Below are positions 40,452 to 51,602 of a DNA stretch of 64,000 bases, piece after piece. The DNA is taken from the NCBI GenBank assembly GCA_965223855.1, contig CBDCXM010000002.1, forward strand, positions 128,001 through 192,000. The letters run 5' to 3'. The stretch comes from Candidatus Multivoradales bacterium. Lineage in GTDB: Bacteria; Acidobacteriota; Thermoanaerobaculia; Multivoradales; JAHEKO01. Within the stretch, counting starts at the first letter, position 1, and each line of letters begins with the position of its first letter. The notes under the pieces were generated by a model that was not told where the DNA came from, made no database searches, and saw only the letters and a list, made by a program, of their open reading frames with translations. The position numbers and the translations under genes were made by a program.

Positions 40452-40997
40452 TCAGTTCTTGCGCCGGCTGAAGAGTCTGACGAGCTGATCGCGCGACGTG
40501 TTGGCGGCCGCCTGCTGGCGCTCCCCGATGCTGCCCGGACGATCGGCCTGGCGTCCGGCGACTCGCGCCTCCGCAGCACGCTCTTTCTCGACTGCGGTGC
40601 GGTAGGACTCGACGACCTTGAGGGTTGCGGCTCGCTCGACGAGACCGACGAGGCGCCCATTGTCGATCACCGGCAGGGTAGGGAAGTTGCAGCACAGGAA
40701 CTGCTCCACGACGCGGAAGAAATCCATCCCCGGCTCACACGAAGGAAAGTCGGTCGACATGTGGTCGCCCACCGTCGCCCCTTCGGCGGTCTCGGTGTAG
40801 AGGAGCGAGGAAACGGCGCGCATCGCGTCCTTCTCCGTGAACATGCCGACGACAGCTCCGTCCTCGAGCACCGCGGTGGCGGTGACATTCGCTCCGACCA
40901 GCCTCTCAATCGCCGAGAAGATCGGCTCGTCCGGAGCGAGGCGCAGTCTCGGTTCCCGCATCCAGTCGCGGGCGGCGGGCAGTCTCGGCTGGCTCAA
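40452..40997 (-). CDS. CBS domain pair protein
   Basis: ARDWM...VVGMFTEKD and VGDHM...LPVIDNGRLVGLV. Confidence 0.88.
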   Translation of the reverse strand: MSQPRLPAARDWMREPRLRLAPDEPIFSAIERLVGANVTATAVLEDGAVVGMFTEKDAMRAVSSLLYTETAEGATVGDHMSTDFPSCEPGMDFFRVVEQFLCCNFPTLPVIDNGRLVGLVERAATLKVVESYRTAVEKERAAEARVAGRQADRPGSIGERQQAAANTSRDQLVRLFSRRKN

Positions 40998-41218
40998 CCC
41001 GACTCTCCTCGGTGAGCGCCTTCGAGGGTCGCCAGAGCTTCGCGCTTGAGTCGATCCCGGTTCGGGCAGGTGGCACAGGTGATCGGCTCACCGTCGGAGT
41101 CGAGAACCGCGGGACCGCCGCAGGAACCTCGCAGGCAGCGGCCCGTGACGAGGACGCCGACCGACATCGCCAGCATGATGGCGGCAAAGAGTGCCAGGGT
41201 CAGGAGGAGGAGTGTCAT
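40994..41218 (-). CDS. nqrM: Na+-NQR maturation factor NqrM
   Basis: TM helix followed by MSVGV...LRGSCGG...CATC; directly downstream of apbE. Confidence 0.85.
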   Translation of the reverse strand: MTLLLLTLALFAAIMLAMSVGVLVTGRCLRGSCGGPAVLDSDGEPITCATCPNRDRLKREALATLEGAHRGESG

Positions 41219-42294
41219 CGTTCTGTCTCTACGGGAAGTGGAAGCTCAGCGGATTCTAGCAATCGATCGAAGGACTCGGAGGTGCGCTCGACGAAGCCGT
41301 CGTCGGTCCGGTCCAGAAAGAGCACCGCCCACCCCTCGACTCGCGCGACTTCCAGCCCCTCTTCGCTTCCCAGGACCAGCATCGCCGTAGCGACGGCATC
41401 GGCGACGGCACATTCGTCATGAAGCACGGTCGTGGACGCGGTGCGATGGGTTGCCGGCCCTCCTGTCCGCGGGTCGAGGACGTGACTGATTCGACGTCCT
41501 TCCACTTCGCGATAGTTCCGATAGTCGCCGCTCGTCGCCATCGCAAGATCCCTCAAGGGAACGACTCGCTGAACGACACCGCGCGCCGCATCCGGACGCT
41601 CGATCCCGAGTGTCCACGCCGCGCCGTCCGGCCGGCGTCCCCCTGCCCGCACCTCCCCCCCGAGCTCGATCAGGTGCCACACGAATCCGAGCGCTTCCAG
41701 CGCCGCCGCCGCGCGGTCGACCGCGTACCCCTTGGCCACGCCCGAAAGGTCGATCTGGAGACCCGGGAGGGCCTTCTCGGCGGTTCCCGCCTCTCGATCG
41801 ATGCTCAGGTGAGCGTCACCCACCACCTCGCGCGCCGTCTCGAGAGTCGTCGGATCCGGATCTCCACGGTGCGCCGCGCTCCCGAATCCCCAGGCTGCGA
41901 CCAGCGGTGCGACCGTGACGTCGAAGGCTCCTCCCGTCCGCGCCGAGACATCAAGTGCGATCGAGAGGACGTCCAGGGTTGGAGGAGACATGGGCTGCGG
42001 CTCGGTCGACGGAGTGTCGTTGAAGCGAGTCACCTCGGACGCTCGATAGGTGGTCATCGCGTCATCCACCGCGCGGAAGGCTTGGTCGACGGCATCCCTC
42101 GCCGCCTCCAGCTCGGCCTCGGTGGCGGGCGTCCCCAACTTCACCGAGTAGGTGGTGCCCATCACCTCTCCCACGAACGAAGCGGGACCGGGCGCGGGAG
42201 CCGGCGCACAGCCGAACCCGAACCACCCAACCATCAACAGGCCGGTCGCCCGAAGGTGCCACACGAATCCGCGGGATGCGGAGGTGGGCCTCAC
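41215..42294 (-). CDS. apbE: FAD:protein FMN transferase ApbE (lipoprotein)
   Basis: MGTTY, GAFDVTV.PL..WGFG, DLSGVAKGYAVD, ATSGDYRNY, SHVLDPRTG, ADA.ATA; probable GTG start at 42294 after an AGAGGGG SD-like sequence. Confidence 0.95.
   Translation of the reverse strand: MRPTSASRGFVWHLRATGLLMVGWFGFGCAPAPAPGPASFVGEVMGTTYSVKLGTPATEAELEAARDAVDQAFRAVDDAMTTYRASEVTRFNDTPSTEPQPMSPPTLDVLSIALDVSARTGGAFDVTVAPLVAAWGFGSAAHRGDPDPTTLETAREVVGDAHLSIDREAGTAEKALPGLQIDLSGVAKGYAVDRAAAALEALGFVWHLIELGGEVRAGGRRPDGAAWTLGIERPDAARGVVQRVVPLRDLAMATSGDYRNYREVEGRRISHVLDPRTGGPATHRTASTTVLHDECAVADAVATAMLVLGSEEGLEVARVEGWAVLFLDRTDDGFVERTSESFDRLLESAELPLPVETER
41672..41688 (+). repeat. Transposase-associated 15-17-nt motif, copy inside the apbE core
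   Basis: AGGTGCCACACGAATCC, identical to 42254-42270 and 48550-48566. Confidence 0.9.
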
Positions 42295-42370
42295 TTCACC
42301 CCTCTTACGCAGGTGCCACACGAATGCGACGGCCTCCACCCATTCCTCGGCGCAGGAGTGCCAGGCGAAT
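42254..42370 (+). repeat. Cluster of the same motif (2 exact + 1 degenerate) at the nqrF-apbE junction
   Basis: Exact copies at 42254-42268 and 42311-42325; GAGTGCCAGGCGAAT (11/15 match) at 42356-42370. Confidence 0.88.
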
Positions 42371-42408
42371 ACGAGCGGAACGCGAGCTGCGACCGCTTCT
42401 CGGCAGGC

Positions 42409-43638
42409 TCAACCGCCGAAGTCGTCGAAGAGGATGTTCTCCGGCTCGACCCCGAGGCTGTCGAGCATCTCCCGGCACGCCTGGAGCATCAGCGGCGGGC
42501 CGCAGATGTAGTACTCGCAGTCTTCGGGCGCCGGGTGGTCCTTGAGGTAATTGTCGAGCAACACCTGGTGAATGAAGCCCGTATATCCACTCCAGTTGTC
42601 TTCCGGCATCGGATCGGAGAGAGCCAGGTGCCACTCGAAATTGTCGTTCGCGGCGGCGATCTCGTTGAAGTCGTCCTCGTAGAACGACTCGCGTCGGCTG
42701 CGCGCGCCATACCAGAAGGAGACCTTGCGATCGGTGCCGAGGCGCTTGAACTGGTCGAAGATGTGGGACCGCATCGGTGCCATGCCGGCCCCGCCGCCGA
42801 TGAAGATCATCTCGGCGTCGGTGTCCTTGGCGAAGAACTCTCCGAACGGCCCGGAGATCACCACTTCGTCCCCCGGCTTGAGGTTGAAGATATAGGAGGA
42901 CATCACGCCCGGCGGAGTGCCTTCCGGCGCCCTCGGCGGGGGAGAAGCGACGCGGACGTTGAGCATGATCATGCCGCGCTCTTCCGGGTAGTTGGCCATC
43001 GAGTAGGCCCGCTGCGCCGGCTCGTCCACCACTGACACGTAACGCCACAGATTGAACTTGTCCCAGTCCTCGCGGTACTTCTCGGCGACGTCGAAATCCT
43101 CGTACTTCGCGACGTGAGGCGGGCATTCGATCTGGATATAGCCGCCGGCCCGGAACGGCACCGACTCACCCTCCGGAAGCTCCAGAACCAGCTCCTTGAT
43201 GAAGGTGGCGACGTTGTCGTTCGACCGCACCTTGCAGGTCCACCGCTTGACGTCGAGGATCTCCGGCTCCATCTCGATCGACATGTCACCCTTGACCTTC
43301 ACCTGGCAAGAAAGACGGCAGCCTTCCCGCGCCTCACCGCGACTGATGTGCCCCGCCTCGGTCGGCAGCATCGCCCCGCCGCCATCGAGGACGTTGACCT
43401 TGCAGACTCCGCAGCTCCCCTTCCCGCCGCATGCGGACGGGACGAAGATCCCCTTGTCGGCCAGCGCACCGAGCAGCGTGCCGCCGGCGGAGACGGTCAT
43501 CGCCAGATCCGGATCACCGTTGACCTCGATCGTGACGTCTCCCGACTGCACGAGTCGGGCGCGCGCGGCGAGTACGATCGCCACCAGCGACAGGATGACC
43601 GCCGTGAACATCGCAACGCCGATGAGGATGGTCGACAT
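42409..43638 (-). CDS. nqrF: Na+-translocating NADH:quinone reductase subunit F
   Basis: [12 protein letters not shown] 2Fe-2S motif, [24 protein letters not shown]-terminal DDFGG. Confidence 0.98.
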
Positions 43639-44252
43639 CAGAGCTGAATCCCGGAGAACGCCAGGAAGGCGATAGCGAGCAGGCCGGTCAGAAGGAAGGC
43701 CATTCCGAGGCCGCGCAGACCCTCCGGCACGTTGCTGTAGCGCAATCGCTCCCGGCACGAGGCGAGCGCCACGATGGCGAGCGCCCAGCCGACACCGGAG
43801 CCGAAGCCGAAGACGGCGCTCTCGGTGAGGTTGTACTCACGCTCCACCATGAAGAGCGACGCGCCGAGGATGGCGCAGTTGACGGCGATCAGCGGCAGGA
43901 AGACGCCGAGCGTGGTGTAGAGCGCCGGAGCGTAGCGATCGAGCGCCATCTCGACGATCTGGACCGCTGCGGCGATCGAGCCGATGTAGGAGAGCAGCCC
44001 GAGGAAGGAAAGGTCGTAGCCACCCAGAGACTCGTTGACCCAGGAGAGCGCTCCTTCCTTGAGGAGGTAGGAGTAGACGAGGTTGTTCAGCGGCACCGTG
44101 ACCGTCATGACGAAGATCACCGCCGCTCCGAGCCCGATCGCCGTCTCGACCTTCTTGGAACAGGCGAGGAAGGTGCACATGCCGAGGAAGAAGGCGAGCG
44201 CCAGATTCTCGACGAAGATCGCCTTGATGGCGAGGTTCAGGTACTGTTCCAT
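43638..44252 (-). CDS. nqrE: Na+-NQR subunit E
   Basis: [30 protein letters not shown]-terminal FSGIQL. Confidence 0.97.
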
Positions 44253-44875
44253 CAGTCCTCCTCCACCTGCTCGGGCTTCCAGGTCCTCAGCCCCCAGATC
44301 AGGAAGGCGATGAGGAAGAACGCCCCGGGCGAGAGCACCATCAGGCCGTTCGGGACGTACCAACCCCCCTCGGAGACCAGGGGCAGCACCGGATGGCCGT
44401 AGATCTTTCCGGAGCCCAGCAGCTCACGGAAGAAGCCGACGATCAGGAGTACGACGGCGTAGCCGAAGCCGTTGCCGAGGCCGTCGAGAAGACTCTTGCC
44501 CGGCGAGTTCTGCATCGCATATCCCTCGGCGCGCCCCATGATGATGCAGTTCGTGATGATGAGGCCGACGAAGACCGAGAGCTGCTTGGAGACGTCGAAG
44601 AGGAAAGCCTTGAGAACCTGGTCGGCGACGATCACGAACGAGGCGATGATCGTCAGCTGGACGATGATGCGGATGCTCGACGGGATGTGATTGCGCAGCA
44701 GGCTCACGGAGACGTTCGAGGCCGACAGCACGGCGATCACGGCGGCCGACATGACCACCGAGGTCTCGAGCTTGGTCGTTACGGCCAGCGCCGAACAGAT
44801 GCCCAGGACCTGAAGGGCGATCGGGTTGTTCGTGAAGATCGGATCGAGGACGATCTGCGAGTTCTTGTCGGCCAT
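44252..44875 (-). CDS. nqrD: Na+-NQR subunit D
   Basis: [36 protein letters not shown]. Confidence 0.97.
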
Positions 44876-45678
44876 CAGGCGGCGCTCCTCTCGGCGCTGG
44901 GACGATCGTCGTTGGCGAGGCGCAGCTTCTCGAGGTACGGGCCGAACCCATCGGGACCGAGCCAGAAGTCGAGCATGTTGGTGATCCCGCGGCTGGTGAT
45001 GGTCGCCCCGGAGAGGCCATCGACCTGGAGCGGCGCCTCTGAGGCCGGCGGCGCCAGCCCCTTGACCACCTCGAGGGCGGGTTGCCAGGAGTCGTCGAAC
45101 ACCTCCCTGCCGGGCCACAGCGCCTTCCATCTCGGGTTGTCGACTTCGCCTCCGAGCCCGGGCGTCTCCTTGTGCTCGTAGTAGGTGATGCCGACCACGG
45201 TGTCGGTGTCGTCATCGAGCGCCAGATAGCCGTAGAGCGTGCCCCACAGCCCGTAGCCCTCGATCGGCAGCACCACCTTGTCGAGGGCGCCGGAGTCGTC
45301 GAGGACCTTGTAGACGAGCGCCAGTTCGGGCACCCGGTTGACCCGAGCCGGATTGCTCTCGACCGCTCGCGAGCGGGCCGGGTCCTTCTTGGCTTTCTGC
45401 TGGTCGTAGGTCTGAGTGTCGCCTTCCGCCTCTTCGCCGGTGGCGAGGTCGACGAGCACCGCCTCGAGGCGTGCCGACTTGGCGGCGAGCTCGTCGCCTG
45501 CCGGCTTTTCGCCGGCGGCGATCAGTCCGGCCGCCTCGAGCACGTTGAGCTGCCGATCGAGCACCTTGTTGGCCTCCTGCTCTTCCTTGAGAGTGACGGC
45601 GGAGCTCGAGACCATCACCGCGCACAGCACGCAGAGGCCGGCGGAGAAGAGCAGGGTGTAGAGGACGCTATGCCGCAT
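44875..45678 (-). CDS. nqrC: Na+-NQR subunit C
   Basis: [20 protein letters not shown] site [10 protein letters not shown]. Confidence 0.97.
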
Positions 45679-46888
45679 ATCGGGCCTGTCGACGTTTGAT
45701 GTTCGCGCGGACGACGAAGTGGTCGATCGTCGAGGCGAATACGTTCATGAAAAGGATGGCGAGCATCATCCCCTCCGGATAGGCGGGGTTGAGCACCCGC
45801 ACGACGATCGCCATGACACCGACGAGGAAGCCGTAGATGTACTTGCCGGCGTTCGTGTGGGCCGCCGAGACGGGGTCGGTTGCCATGAAGACGGCGCCGA
45901 AGGCCCAGCCGCCGAGGACGATCTGCCAGTGGAACGGCACGTTGATCAGCAGGTTGGTCTCGGAGCCGACAGCATTGAGCAGGGCGGTCGTGGCGAAGGT
46001 GCCGATGACGAGCGACACCATGATGCGCCACGAGCCGATGCCGGAGAGCACCAGGATGGCGGCGCCGATGAGGCACGCGATGGCGGAGGTCTCTCCCATC
46101 GAGCCCGGGATGGTTCCGACGAGCGCGTCCTTCCAGGCCAGTCCCTTCTCGAGACCCGCCACGCCGTCCGTGGCGGCGATCGAGAGCCAGGTCGCGCCGC
46201 TGTAACCGTCGGGGCTCGTCTGGGCGGCGATCCACACCTTGTCTCCGGAGATCTCCGCAGGGTAGGCGAAGAACAGGAACGCGCGCGCCGTGAGTGCCGG
46301 GTTGAGGATGTTCATCCCGGTGCCTCCGAAGACCTCCTTGCCGACGATGACGCCGAAGAGGACGCCGAGGGCGACCTGCCAGAGAGGGATGGTCGGCGGC
46401 AGGGTCAACGGCAGCAGCATGCCGGTGACGAGGAAGCCCTCGTTGATCTCGTGCTTGCGGACGATGGAGAAGAGAGCTTCGGCGTTGCCTCCGACCACGA
46501 ACGTGACGAGAAGCACGGGAAGGTAGTAGAGAGCGCCGTGGGTGATGCAGGCGAGCATGTCGGCCGGGTTGAAGGCGAGACCGAGACGCTCCATCGCCGT
46601 CGTCTGCCAGGTGTCGAGTGGCAGTGCTCCGCCCGTGATCGCCCGATGGGCTTGGAGGCCGGTGTTGTACATCGCCATGAACATCGTCGGGATGAGCGCC
46701 ACGACGACGGTCATCATCATCCGCTTGAGATCGAGCGCGTCGCGGACGTGCGTCGAGCCCGACGTGACCGTCCCGGGGGTGTAGAGGAACGTGTCCGGGG
46801 CCTCGTATAGGGCATGGAACTTCTCGAGCTTGCCTCCGGGCTCGAAATGCTTCGACTGGCGATCGAGGAACCTACGCAGGAACTTCAT
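45668..46888 (-). CDS. nqrB: Na+-NQR subunit B
   Basis: [25 protein letters not shown] site [26 protein letters not shown]. Confidence 0.97.
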
Positions 46889-48255
46889 CAGCCTTCCTTC
46901 TCGATCGTGGTCAGCATCGACCGCAGGTACTCGCCGTAGTTGTGCTTGCCGGGGCAGACGAAGGACAGCACTCCGAGGTCCTCCTCGTCGAGTTCGAGGA
47001 CGCCGAGTGTCTCGGCCTGCTCCAGGTCTCCGGCGGCGAGCGAGCGCAGCAGATAGGAGGGCGGGATGTCGAAGGGAAACACCTTCTCGTACATGCCGAT
47101 CGGGACGATGGCGCGGTCGGAGCCGTTCTTGGTGGTGGAGAAGGGGAACCTCCGGCCCGGCAGGAGCTTCGAGGCGAACACGTTGACGACGGAGAACTTG
47201 TCGGTGCCGGGCGTCAGCCAACCGAGGAACTCGCGCTCCCGACCCTCGCGCAGGACGGTCACCTGGTTGTGATGCCGGCCGAGGAAGCCGTGGATCTCGC
47301 CCATGGCCCTGCGTCCGTAGAGCGGTGAGCCGGAGATGACGCGGTTGTCACCCTCGACGAGCTCGCCGCGCACCAGATCGTCGAGGTGGGCTCCGATGCG
47401 GGTTCGAAGGAGTCGCGGCCGCTCGACCGCGGGCCCGGCCAGTGCGATCGTGCGCTGCACGTCGAGGTTGCCGGTCTCGAAAAGGTGCCCGATCGCCAGC
47501 ACTTCCTGGTAGCCGATCCACCAGACGGTGCGTTGGCGACTCGCGGGTGCAAGTTGGTGGATGTGGTAGCCGGCCGTGCCGGAGGGATGGGGGCCGGAGA
47601 ACTGCTCGTGCCGGAAGTCGCCCGCGGGCAGCGTCGGAGTGAATCCGGTGTGGGTGCAGACAAAGACCGGCCCGTCGGTCAACTTGCCGAGGGCGGTGAG
47701 GCCGCGCTCCAGGTCTCCTTCGCGACCGGCGATCACCTGTCGCGGATCGGGGGAAAGGGGGTGGGAGTCGGTGAGATTGACGAAGATCGCCGCGGCAGTG
47801 GAGTCGGGTTCGGGAACCCGGCTGAACGGCCGGCGCCGCAGGGCGACCCACTGCCCGGACTCGACCAGCAGTGCCCGAACCTGGTCACCGGTCATCGCGT
47901 TCGGATGCTGACCGGAGAAGGCGCGGAATCGACTGGCACCTCCCTTGCCGCCGCGCTCCGCCGCCGTGAGCTCGACGACGACCGACTGCAGTGCTCGCCG
48001 GTCGCCGCGGTGGACTCCGACCACCTTGCCGTCGGCCGGGGAGGTGTGGAGCACGCCGGGAGTCTTCTTGTCCTCGAACAGGACCTGCCCTCTTTGTACC
48101 GAGTCGCCGACGCCGACCTTCATCGTCGGCTTGAGGCCGACGAAGTCGTGGGCCAGGACGGCGACGCGGGCGACCTGGCGGGCATCCTCGACGATGGCTT
48201 CAGGGCTGCCCGTGATCGGGAGGTCGATCCCGGTACGCGTTCTGTGGTGGGCCAT
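46888..48255 (-). CDS. nqrA: Na+-NQR subunit A
   Basis: [38 protein letters not shown]...FVCPGK..YG..LR..L..IEKEG. Confidence 0.97.
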
Positions 48256-48309
48256 TCGTATCTGGTTCCAGTGCTGTGAGCCGGGTGGCTGAGAGGCGAT
48301 TCTGTCTGC

Positions 48310-48327
48310 TTGTGAAAAAAATCACAA
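48310..48327. promoter_or_regulatory. Palindromic operator upstream of nqrA (Rex-type or CRP-family box)
   Basis: TTGTGAAAAAAATCACAA: one mismatch to the Rex consensus TTGTGAA-N4-TTCACAA and an exact TGTGA-N6-TCACA match. Confidence 0.75.
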
Positions 48328-48487
48328 GCTCAATCACACATCCCGCTGACCGGGACTCGACGAAACGAGACGCGGCCGGACCGACGGTTTCCGGCGCAGC
48401 GGTTTGTGAATCCCCATTGTCCCCGACCGCCGAGATCGCCGTCAACACTCCGCCGCCGAGCGTTGCCCCGAGCAGGTGCAGTGGGGA

Positions 48488-48566
48488 AGGTGCCACACGA
48501 ATGTCCGCCGGCCGAGTAGGTGCGCCCGCAGAGTAGGTGCCCGCAGAGTAGGTGCCACACGAATCC
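48488..48566 (+). repeat. REP-like repeat cluster upstream of the HUH transposase
   Basis: AGGTGCCACACGAAT at 48488 and 48550; GAGTAGGTGC three times at 48514, 48531 and 48546. Confidence 0.9.
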
Positions 48567-48626
48567 AGACAACGAGGTTCTCATCCGCTGTGAGATCCGG
48601 GTGTGCGATGCCGTCTGGCTGGTGTG

Positions 48627-49529
48627 ATGGCACGCCCGCTGCGATACCTCCCTTCAGAGGCTCTGGTAGAAGTTACCTGCCGCGTACTTCAGCGCAGATT
48701 CCTCCTTCGGCCGTCGCCGGCCCTCAACGCGATCGTCATAGGAGCCCTCGCTCGAGGGCAGGAGCGGTACGGGATGAGGGTCTGCGCCTTCATCTACCTC
48801 TCGAACCACTGCCACCTCCTGCTCTATCCGACCGACGGCAAGCAGCTTGCCGACTTCATGCGCTACGTGAACTCGAAGATTGCGCGAGAGGTCTGTCGGC
48901 TGCATGACTGGGGTGAGAAGGTGTGGGGCAGGCGCTATGTGGGCATCAGGGTGTCGGACACGAGGGTAGATCAGGTTCGCCGGCTCCGGTATCTGCTCTC
49001 GCAGGGCTGCAAGGAGGGGCTCGTCGCCTCTCCTCGGCATTGGCCCGGTGCGACGTCCACGAGAGCACTGATGCAGGACGAAGAGGTCGAAGGAGTCTGG
49101 ATCGACAGGACGTCTCAGTACCGTGCCAAAGGAGGGCGAGGAGCAGGGCCCGAAGCTCGGTTCACGACTCGCCATCGTCTGAAGCTCACGCCGCTGCCGT
49201 GCTGGGAAGGTACTCCGGACGCCGAATGGAGAGCAGAGGTGAGGAGGCTCGTCAAGGAGATCGAGGACGAGGCGCCGAGAAAGGTCCTGGGGAGGAGGGC
49301 GATCCTTCGACAGCATCCTCATGATCGTCCGAAAGGGCCTGCGTCATGGAGGCCCGCACCTCGGTTCCACGCCATCGAGCGGGAGGTCAGACAGTCTCTC
49401 GAGAACGCCTATCGGCTGGCGGTCATCGCCTACCGTGAGGCACGCGAGGAACTGCTTGAGGGGAGGGAGGCTCGCTTCCCATGCGGTTGCTTCCCTCCTG
49501 CCCTGAGTTTCGTTCGGATGCAGGTGTGA
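48627..49529 (+). mobile_element. REP-associated tyrosine transposase (RAYT)-like HUH/Y1 transposase
   Basis: MARPLR start, YLSNHCHLL (HUH), W.RRY, LRYLLSQGCKEGLV..P..WPG (catalytic Tyr region); no tnpB; GTAG-containing repeats adjacent. Confidence 0.88.
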
Positions 49530-49792
49530 CCGCAGTGTCTGACCGTCCTAGCGACGACAGCAGGATCGCCGGAACTCCGCGCTAGCTGGACGACCGGGAA
49601 GGTAGAGGCGAGGGCTTCACAGAGACCTGGCCCGTCGGCAGCTGCCTTCTGCTTCTCCGGCGCTACTTGGTGCTGTCGTCAGCCCATCGGAACGGGCGGT
49701 GGGCGCGCGAAGGCCGCGCCTTACGCTCCGCATGAAGAGTGGCTCGCGCCGGCGGACCTCCACCGGAGCCCTTGCTACCAGTCGTGGTCGGC

Positions 49793-49807
49793 AATCGTGT
49801 GGCACTT
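49793..49807 (-). repeat. Inverted degenerate motif copy downstream of the transposase
   Basis: The reverse complement reads AAGTGCCACACGATT (13/15 match). Confidence 0.75.
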
Positions 49808-49817
49808 TGTTTCTTCT

Positions 49818-51602
49818 CTACTGCGTCTTGTGCCGCGTTGCGACGCGTCGGCGCAGGGACTCGATGGAATCGTCTGGCACCGCGGTGATGAGCTGGCGGG
49901 TGTAGGGGTGTCGCGGGGCGGAGTAGATCCGCTCGGCGGCGCCGAACTCGACGAGGCGGCCGGCTCTCATGACGGCGATCATGTCGGAGGCGAAGCGGAC
50001 GACGGAGAGGTCGTGGCTGATGAAGAGGTAGGCGAGGTTGCGCTCCTCCTGGAGGTCCTTGAGGAGGTTGAGGACCTGGGCCTGGACGGAGACGTCGAGC
50101 GCCGAGACGCACTCGTCGCAGATGACGAGATCCGGATCGACGGAGAGCGCGCGGGCGATGGCGATGCGCTGCCGCTGCCCGCCGGAGAACTCGTGCGGGT
50201 AGCGTTCGAGGTGATCGGCCTCCAGCCCAACTTCGGCAAGCAGGGCGGCTGCTCGTTCTCGACGGTCGCTTCGGCTGTCACCGATTCCGTGGACCGCCAT
50301 CGGCTCCGTCAGCAGGGCGCCGACTCGCATCCTCGGGTTGAGCGAACCGTAGGGGTCCTGGAAGATCATCTGGAAGCGACGGCGGGATCTCCGAAGCACT
50401 TTTCCGCGCAACGTCGCCAGATCCACGCCGTCGAACATCACCGACCCGGCGGTCGGCTCGATCAGTCGCAGGACGGCTCGTCCGAGGGTCGTCTTGCCGC
50501 AACCCGACTCGCCGACGAGCCCGACCGTCTGGCCGCGGTAGATGTCGAGATCGACCGCATCGACCGCCCGGACCGGCGGCGAGCCGCCACGCAACCAGCT
50601 CTGCCGACCGGGATACTCCACCTCCAGGCCTCGGATCGAGAGCAGGGGAGTCTCGCCTTCTTCGACGAAGGTGGCTTCGCTGTCACCGCCTGAGTCGAAC
50701 CCGGGGTGGAGGCGCCGGGGCCGCCCGGCCGATTCGTAGGAGGCGAGGTCGAGCGCTCCACCGTCCCGCTCCGCCGTGAGGAAGTCGCCGACGGTCGGTA
50801 GCCGCCGGAAGGTCGTGTCGAGTCTCGGGCGGCAGGCGAGAAGCCCACGGGTGTAGGGATGCCGCGGCCGCTCGAAGAGTTCGAGCACCGGCGCCGTCTC
50901 GACCAGCTTGCCCTGGAAGAGCACCGCGACATCGTCCGCGATCTCGGCGATAACCCCCAGGTCGTGGGTGATGAAGAGCATCGCCATCCCGCGCTCGTCG
51001 CGCAGCCGGCGGAGCAGTTCGAGAATCTGAGCCTGCAGCGTCACATCGAGCGCGGTCGTCGGCTCGTCGGCGATCAGCAGCCTCGGCGACCCGGCGAGCG
51101 CCATCGCGATCATCACTCGCTGCTTCTGGCCGCCGGAGAGTTCATGCGGAAACGAGTGGTACCTCTCGGCCGGCCCCGGAAGGCCGACCTCCTCGAACAG
51201 TGTTACGGCCCTCTCGGCCGCCTCCCGCCGCGATGTGCGCTCGTGAAGACGGATCGTCTCGGCCACCTGTTGCCCGACCTTGTAGACCGGGTTGAGGGCG
51301 GCGCCCGGCTCCTGAAACACCATGGCAATCTCGGCGCCGCGGATCGGACGCAGCTCGCGCGGCGGAAGCCTCACCAGGTCGCGACCGAGCCAGGAGACGC
51401 TGCCGGCGGTGAGACGGGCGTTGTCCGGAAGCAGTCCGAGCACCGACAGAGAAGTCACGGATTTCCCGGAACCGGACTCGCCGACCAGCCCGAGCGTGCG
51501 TCCGGGCTCGATCGAGAAGCTGACGTCGTCGACGGCGATCGCCGTGCCGCCGAACTCGGTTCTGAGTCCGTCGACTTCGAGCAGCGGCTTGATCTCTGTC
51601 AT
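49818..51602 (-). CDS. Peptide/nickel ABC transporter ATP-binding protein with two fused ATPase domains
   Basis: [17 protein letters not shown] and [21 protein letters not shown]; HPYT twice; ATG at 51602. Confidence 0.95.

Follow-up and report, generated by a model that had tools for sequence, protein, structure and literature searches.

A probable TIRtron with spare copies of its left terminal repeat beside the nqr operon of a Thermoanaerobaculia genome

Genes for RAYT-like transposases that are flanked by terminal inverted repeats (TIRs) were named TIRYT, and the units they form TIRtrons, in 2013 (Di Nocera, De Gregorio, Rocco; PMC3733652). According to the main text of that paper, TIRtron repeats occur as singles, dimers and clusters, some members share a GGGGWSAS motif and an Acidobacteria group is defined; REP clusters reiterated in tandem together with flanking DNA are described there as well (PMC3733652). 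In a later classification, as its main text has it, most TIRYTs belong to TnpA-Y1 subclass 2.1, with a C-terminal helix-turn-helix (HTH) region (Bac_DnaA_C, HTH_23 or HTH_28) and a Y-x3-NP tyrosine motif (Quentin et al. 2018, PMC6006769). Here, we examined a stretch of 64,000 nucleotides (nt), referred to as the window (G000:C2:128001-192000), from the genome of Candidatus Multivoradales bacterium (G000; 4,520,844 bases in 9 contigs, 68% GC), in which a 15-mer, AGGTGCCACACGAAT, recurs between apbE, the nqr operon and a gene for a Y1 transposase. We consider it likely that the 15-mer is the conserved TIR core of a 1.26-kb TIRtron with a TIRYT enzyme, and that the extra copies, all running in the same direction, are spare left ends, which the unit's own enzyme may have made.

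A sequence-only reading of the window had described five exact copies of the 15-mer, all in one orientation and upstream of the transposase gene, and our scan returned precisely these, on the plus strand at 41672, 42254, 42311, 48488 and 48550, with no further exact copy in the 64 kb. Matches with two mismatches were found at 42626 (plus strand) and 49793 (minus strand). Chance would give 0.05 matches of the 15-mer per window, and a total of seven was reached in none of 100 shuffles. Across the 4,520,844 bases of the genome there are six exact copies, and the motif is accordingly not uniformly abundant: five lie at the nqr-apbE/transposase locus, at most 7 kb from the gene, and the sixth (C9:1593639) adjoins the right end of a paralogous unit. 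The copies are not assembly artefacts, since short-read contigs from Logan reproduce them with 0 differences over 41000-42442 and 46876-50178; the runs possibly come from the genome's own source sample, so that the agreement excludes long-read assembly error and is not independent biology. A strain variant in the same contigs (16 differences) likewise carries the transposase unit.

The copy nearest the gene forms the left end of a unit that spans 48550-49807. The parts of this unit, and the repeats immediately outside its left end, are as follows.

48488-48502, plus strand: additional complete copy of the left repeat, lying 62 nt beyond the working left end
48507-48555, plus strand: three tandem units of 15-17 nt from the repeat search, each joining outside DNA to the repeat's first 6 nt (..GAGTAGGTGC)
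48550-48575, plus strand: left TIR, with the core 15-mer at 48550-48564; homology between paralogous units begins here
48590-48616, plus strand: two-part box GTGAGA-N16-CGTCT, compared by eye, ending ~10 nt before the ATG
48627-49529, plus strand: Y1 HUH tyrosine transposase gene (TIRYT-type) for 300 amino acids (aa), with HUH = H61-C-H63 and Tyr122 located by Pfam, alignment and model
49782-49807, minus strand: right TIR, whose core at 49793-49807 matches the left core at 13/15; an ABC ATPase gene has its stop 10 nt away

A repeat search paired 48552-48575 with 49782-49805 as an inverted repeat of 24 nt at 83%. The inverted 13/15 copy noticed earlier downstream of the gene, at 49793, is therefore the core of the right terminal repeat, and the 15-mer, which had been taken for a free, REP-like singlet, is instead the TIR of a 1.26-kb unit (left 48550, right 49793).

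The same organization recurs in paralogs. A tblastn search of this genome found 19 full-length paralogs and one split copy with 54-70% identity, and a second genome search gave 22 transposase matches; the 19 open frames all encode 300-304 aa. In the shared layout, a 15-mer of the form [AG][AG]GT[GT][CT]C....GAAT stands 40-115 nt before the ATG and its reverse complement about 230-420 nt past the gene end. A blind search for inverted 15-mers retrieved pairs at 13 of 20 loci (13-15/15), every one of the GGTGYC type; in these pairs, 50-114 nt separate the left copy from the ATG, and 241-354 nt separate the end of the tblastn match from the right copy. The nearest paralog pairs are 82-91% identical in DNA over 1.0-1.24 kb. 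This shared stretch begins with the left repeat and reaches the right repeat or its vicinity, so that the two repeats delimit what was duplicated. In a tree, the 19 proteins formed three clades (support 100/100, 100/100 and 98/97), which the repeat cores track: CACAC/CACTC in the clade of the present unit, GTCACAGG in another and CCGGGT/CCAGGT/CCAGGC (CC[AG]GG[TC]) in the remaining one. The expectation that each homolog has a flanking variant of its own was borne out, and the motif belongs to the enzyme. The genes themselves have no strand bias (12 of 20 on the G-rich strand). In one region of 15 kb, C9:1063311-1078506, a single clade is represented by three full paralogs and two fragments, and two of these lie head to tail.

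Comparison with same-genus genomes showed that the unit was inserted between the ABC ATPase gene and the nqr promoter. In G001, G002 and G003 (n=3), the distance from the ABC ATPase gene to nqrA is about 240-280 nt, an empty site, versus 1,562 nt in G000, where the gap holds the unit and the outer array. At the right edge, the ABC ATPase frame (minus strand, 49818-49880) keeps RRRVA as in the relatives and then continues with a differing tail, TRHKTQ and the stop, beside the right repeat; because the tail differs there, the insertion of the unit has rewritten the last codons. Each of the two sequences that border the inserted block on the outside aligns to one and the same stretch of ~30 nt at the G001 ABC 3' end (p about 0.02 each), and the alignment of the two flanks with each other was not significant (p 0.27), which gives a weak hint of a target-site duplication.

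Many left ends, both here and among the paralogs, are preceded by two to five tandem units, each consisting of 4-10 outside bases and the first 6 nt of the repeat. At the present unit, the 10-mer GAGTAGGTGC has 3 extra copies upstream of the left end and 0 in a control window. Extra copies of the 4 nt outside plus the first 6 repeat nt precede the left end, within 90 nt, in 6 of 15 G000 paralogs (control 0) and at 9 of 17 loci from other genomes (control 1). In arrays where the following base is different, the junction lies directly behind repeat position 6. Right ends of paralogs exhibit a mirror duplication pattern. In several paralogs, the last ~145-190 nt, including the right repeat, are tandem-duplicated 2-3x downstream (C9:525171-525470, C9:92513-92602, C9:1992681-1992892 and others).

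The enzyme had been described as RAYT-like and of the HUH type, and this identification stands. Pfam Y1_Tnp (PF01797) matched with 27 bits at a cut-off of 23, which places the protein in the superfamily; at E <= 0.01 it was the sole Pfam match, with no HTH or DnaA_C domain; residues 242-300 may hold a remote HTH. The top NCBIfam match, REP_Tyr_transpos (NF047646), reached 44.6 bits and stayed below the cut-off of 80 for a RAYT. Residues H61 and H63 (NHCH) and Y122 are invariant across 53 aligned homologs, in which the C-terminal half is conserved too. The tyrosine motif is YLLSQG (family consensus YLLEQG), i.e., Y-x3-Q(-G), which has the spacing of IS200 and differs from the Y-x3-NP given for class-2 RAYTs in the main text of PMC6006769. 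An AlphaFold model (pLDDT 87.7) was structurally nearest to E. coli TnpA-REP 4er8 (Foldseek E 3e-6; VIA Z 14.8 over 153 residues, root-mean-square deviation 2.7), followed in VIA by IS608 TnpA (Z 9.1), and a sequence-profile search of the PDB matched solely ISDra2 transposases (E 5e-4). Residues 242-300 gave no separate match in VIA-align, and residues 145-300 matched unnamed clusters only in a protein atlas search (best score 0.90). Upstream of the gene, the box, generalized as G[TC][GA]AG[AG]-N16-CGTC[TC], has equal spacing in examples of all three paralog clades, compared by eye and not counted by script. It looks promoter-like and would yield a nearly leaderless mRNA. We presume that it resembles promoters of extracytoplasmic function (ECF) sigma factors.

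Beyond this genome, a protein search returned 668 relatives, typically of about 301 aa, some of which carry the JGI label "REP element-mobilizing transposase RayT". Species-representative genomes contributed 59 loci, mostly from metagenome-assembled genomes (MAGs) of Thermoanaerobaculia with several copies each, and some from Myxococcota. A GGTGYC-type inverted pair of at least 11/15 was found at 17 of the 46 foreign loci with full flanks and in 1 of the control windows, for which not every locus had room. Among 31 related genomes, 24 contain the family, with up to 22 matches each (a tally that includes the unpublished G005).

Away from the unit, three of the exact copies lie at apbE and in the spacer between nqrF and apbE, among the following features.

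41215-42294, minus strand: apbE, encoding a flavin mononucleotide (FMN) transferase lipoprotein (ApbE 263.7 bits), with a putative GTG start at 42294
41672-41688, plus strand: copy inside apbE, 17 nt common to the copies at 42254 and 48550; on the minus strand GGA TTC GTG TGG CAC CT = G F V W H L
42254-42325, plus strand: second left-end array in the nqrF-apbE spacer and the first apbE codons, with a full copy (42254-42268), a partial AGGTGG (42282-42287) and a full copy (42311-42325)
42356-42370, plus strand: degenerate or other-variant copy GAGTGCCAGGCGAAT in the nqrF-apbE spacer
42409-48255, minus strand: nqr operon from nqrF to nqrA, between the two left-end arrays, given for context and outside the unit

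The gene apbE carries one copy internally and one in its signal-peptide codons. At the homologous apbE/nqr sites, none of 11 loci from relatives has the motif. The nqrF stop and the conserved MGTT[YW] codons of apbE are 246 nt apart in G000; the distance is 153, 136 and 133 nt in three relatives, a more distant genome has 313 nt, and five further loci yielded no pair. The extra ~100 nt of G000 contain the copies at 42254, 42311 and 42356. The degenerate copy at 42356, which had also been pointed out before, exists as GAGTGCCAGGCGAAT and is closer to the repeat variant of other paralogs than to that of the present unit. The copy at 42254 with its next 25 nt, including the partial AGGTGG, is identical to the copy at 48488 and its flank at 33 of 41 positions, and because of this match we read the nqrF-apbE array as a duplicate of the one outside the present left end.

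The copy within apbE is of a different kind. The alignment of G000 ApbE with 11 relatives is free of gaps, and every sequence has 29 residues from AKG to GGE. Within this stretch, G000 has GGA TTC GTG TGG CAC CTG (GFVWHL), versus, e.g., GGC CTC GCC GAC TAC ATG in relatives, which show G-x-x-x-[YFWL]-[ML]. Judging from this alignment, the copy at 41672 has replaced five apbE codons with the length unchanged, for which a short templated patch would be the simplest idea. As a candidate for wider homology, 44 nt around the apbE copy match the 42311 copy at 75%; local alignments of the flanks by themselves were not significant, and the candidate was set aside. Downstream of apbE, directly adjoining it, lies an open reading frame (ORF) of 74 aa (40994-41218, minus strand), which by position could be nqrM.

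Genome-wide, a degenerate pattern of the motif gave 96 matches, versus 2 in the reversed sequence. Paralogs lie within 600 nt of 38 matches and within 10 kb of 18, and 40 are farther away. Many of the 58 matches more than 600 nt from any paralog form clusters in one direction, and the variant AGGTGCCAGGTGAAT dominates the far matches, with such clusters distant from any paralog throughout the genome. None of 17 extra-copy clusters was mixed in direction, and these clusters contained no inverted doublets. In 13 of the 17, the motif reads in sense on the G-rich strand (p 0.049), a weak hint of a strand preference. Single-stranded DNA folds of six repeat regions were no better than those of shuffles (z -0.75 to +1.68), and Rfam gave no RNA family at E <= 1 in 41000-50300. 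The picture of local, one-way, non-palindromic copies that belong to the enzyme (5 of 6 exact copies in the locus) is upheld by these data. Two candidates for further in-gene copies lie in the middle of the ORF of an HATPase_c_3 protein (C3) and near the start of a methyltransferase ORF (C9). A classifier for such copies based on GC content at third codon positions was rejected as unreliable, since it missed apbE itself.

Taken as a mechanism, the TIRtron reading would have the enzyme recognize its own repeat and nick it after position 6 (AGGTGC/C). Staggered nick-and-repair, or a one-ended or aborted strand transfer, could then duplicate the end together with a few outside bases, which would build arrays beside the element and occasionally seed copies nearby. 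Spread of the copies in cis by the enzyme itself, as proposed from the sequence alone, is plausible in this form. It is also possible, if rather doubtful, that the unit is a TIRtron whose extra copies were made by host processes, be it slippage, unequal recombination or the relic of an earlier insertion of the unit at nqrF-apbE that has since been lost by a move or a deletion and left its outer left-end array behind. The uniform direction of the clusters would suit such an origin, as would the many arrays that are plain tandem repeats of 13-37 nt including outside DNA, and the homology of the 42254 array to the present left-end array is what a footprint would look like. Slippage gives no account of a breakpoint after position 6 in every placeable array, in different genomes and at both ends, nor of the isolated, length-neutral copy in apbE, and motif scans found no right-end remnant of a relic at the nqrF-apbE site. 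In an unlikely variant, the enzyme would write its own end sequence into nearby DNA by insertion and short templated replacement, drawn to look-alikes. A perfect copy over five codons, look-alikes at both edges of the locus and the distal left ends all fit it; the distal left ends (42254/42311) and the right end (49807) enclose the whole nqr operon as a possible 7.5-kb cargo.

Three further alternatives concern what the enzyme or the motif is for. The paralogs could be nickases kept by the host and no longer transposons, with repeats that serve the cell, e.g., as marked nick or pause sites. They are old and diverged yet intact, with a conserved C-terminal half, a promoter-like box before the ATG and a wide presence in related genomes, and RAYTs in general have been argued to be domesticated (PMC5581495). 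We nevertheless regard this as improbable: whole units have been duplicated repeat to repeat, fragments and split copies exist, and three same-genus genomes lack the present unit at its insertion site. Such traits are typical of mobile elements. The case for a degenerate REPtron, that is, a single-copy domesticated RAYT spreading GTAG-headed hairpins, draws on TnpA-REP as the best structural match, on REP_Tyr_transpos as the best NCBIfam match, on the RayT names at JGI and on the GT that precedes the copy nearest the gene and makes it GTAG. This head, emphasized in the earlier reading, is not a feature of the family, being present at 2 of 15 paralog left ends (read from flank views). With an NCBIfam score of 44.6 versus 80, no hairpin, no inverted doublets, 19-22 gene copies instead of one and YLLSQG instead of Y-x3-NP (motif definitions from the main text of PMC6006769), a REPtron is very improbable. 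Least credible of all is a regulator binding site of the nqr-apbE operon with the transposase as a bystander. Copies do bracket the operon on its transcribed strand, but the same motif family flanks paralogs as inverted pairs in this and other genomes, relatives have the same operon without the motif, and the conserved palindrome of the nqr promoter, TGTGA-N6-TCACA, is a different sequence.

Several observations weigh against the reading of the locus as a TIRtron with enzyme-made spare ends. The second array lies 6 kb from the unit, and its route there left no trace. Insertion cannot explain the copy at 41672, because five codons were swapped without a change in length, and tandem arrays can be explained by replication slippage alone. 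Y1 enzymes studied so far recognize DNA hairpins, which counts against this reading because none is predicted at the repeats (six folds). Of 20 paralogs, 7 show a weak inverted repeat or none at the 13/15 threshold, and a GGTGYC-type pair was not found at 29 of 46 foreign loci. DNA identity between paralogs does not exceed 91%, so no recent move of a whole unit is visible. The contig data, in which rare forms would go unseen, contain no excised circles or empty-donor joints at the repeats, and any present activity is conjectural. On balance, the enzyme, rather than host replication or recombination, would be the maker of the copies, and position 6 would mark its nick site.

Other observations concern the surroundings of the unit. 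About 60 nt upstream of nqrA lies the palindrome cTTGTGA-aaaaaa-TCACAAg (TGTGA-N6-TCACA; 48309-48328, core 48311-48326). Because it is conserved in G001, G002 and G003, together with the nqr promoter region beyond the insertion, it is probably a real regulatory site of the operon. We take it to be of the CRP-family type. One sigma-70-like site (48445-48416, minus strand) is located between the array and nqrA. Within the operon span, Pfam annotation covers two ORFs, NqrA (46888-48255) and NqrF (42409-43758). At each edge of the locus, a conserved coding stretch resembles the repeat: FEWHL in nqrF (42626-42640, 13/15, left-end direction) and AVPDDS in the ABC gene (49870-49884, 12/15, right-end direction), the latter lying ~60 nt beyond the right repeat. 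The former is ordinary nqrF coding sequence, NF[ETD]WHLALS[DE]P in G000 and all 7 matched relatives. Chance may account for these look-alikes, or the element may favor DNA that resembles its ends. In the short-read contigs, 48476 is joined backwards to 41520 with 15 other letters in between (depth 6.6 in X1 and 4.2 in X2), as expected if the segment from apbE' to the nqr promoter were duplicated in tandem or circularized; under the templated-writing variant, it might be the trace of a form carrying nqr as cargo. Its offset of 6956 nt equals that of a weak 47-nt repeat, and the rest of this diagonal showed no further similarity.

To our knowledge, TIRYT elements have been named and never tested. 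The present family poses the puzzle of a Y1 enzyme, normally a reader of hairpins, that handles inverted repeats without hairpins. Its about 20 diverged enzyme/repeat pairs in three clades form a natural series, offering data on which residues read which bases, and the breakpoint after position 6 predicts the cut site. The repeats also reshape host genes, as the start region of apbE and five of its internal codons are now repeat sequence.

Among known systems, IS200/IS605 transposases (IS608, ISDra2) share the HUH/Tyr fold, the Y-x3-Q motif (ISDra2 alignment E 5e-4), multiple copies and the duplication of whole units. IS200/IS605 elements carry hairpins in subterminal position, lack inverted repeats and are present in nearly identical copies. 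In contrast, the present units have inverted repeats and copies at most 91% identical, which sets them outside that family; no hairpins were predicted at the repeats, deeper end regions not having been searched systematically. The REP/RAYT system (4er8) provides the best structural match, and here too the gene is bracketed by inverted cognate repeats, with extra copies dispersed. Unlike there, the repeats lack both a GT[AG]G foot and a hairpin, the gene is present in more than one copy and its NCBIfam score is below the cut-off; since the repeats do not fold better than shuffles and the GTAG head occurs at 2 of 15 left ends, the definition of a REP fails. The sequence-only reading had contrasted the pattern with classical REPINs: the non-palindromic, one-way nature of the copies stands, whereas its novelty does not, the TIRYT/TIRtron type having been named in 2013 (PMC3733652).

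Within the TnpA-Y1 classification, as its main text presents it (PMC6006769), subclasses 2.1 and 2.3 and class 3 are the nearest groups, and the protein likewise carries a further C-terminal region on its Y1 core. It lacks the Pfam HTH or DnaA_C tail of subclass 2.1, and it has NHCH as HUH motif and QG in the tyrosine motif. With subclass 2.3 it shares a length of ~300 aa, multiple copies and low identity between copies, and with class 3 an acidobacterial host, Q in the tyrosine motif and atypical repeats, but class 3 has Y-x4-Q and a median of 178 aa, versus Y-x3-Q-G and 300 aa here. By published key motifs, the transposase fits none of the 12 TnpA-Y1 subclasses (PMC6006769). In term searches, the main text of PMC6006769 gave no end micro-duplications with a fixed breakpoint, and that of PMC3733652 gave neither these nor a length-neutral copy within a gene.

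TIRtrons remain the closest match. A RAYT-like Y1 gene lies between inverted repeats (24 nt at 83%; 13 of 20 paralogs) and not between REP hairpins, repeat copies occur as singles and clusters in moderate abundance (96 versus 2 in the control), and different genes in one genome carry different repeats, as in the TIRtron genomes presented in the main text of PMC3733652. The repeat core GGTG[CT]CA[CG] agrees at 6-7 of 8 positions with GGGGWSAS as quoted there, and so do the cores GGTGCCAC, GGTGTCAC and GGTGCCAG. Unlike the named TIRYT examples, which have one to three copies, this genome holds 19-22 diverged paralogs, and Thermoanaerobaculia hosts are not mentioned in the main text of that paper (PMC3733652). 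As a class, then, the TIRtron is an already described kind of element. What the present locus adds is a Thermoanaerobaculia family with a Y-x3-Q motif, no HTH tail and ~20 enzyme/repeat pairs, micro-duplications of the ends whose breakpoint, in every case where it can be located, follows repeat position 6, and a copy that replaced five apbE codons without a change in length.

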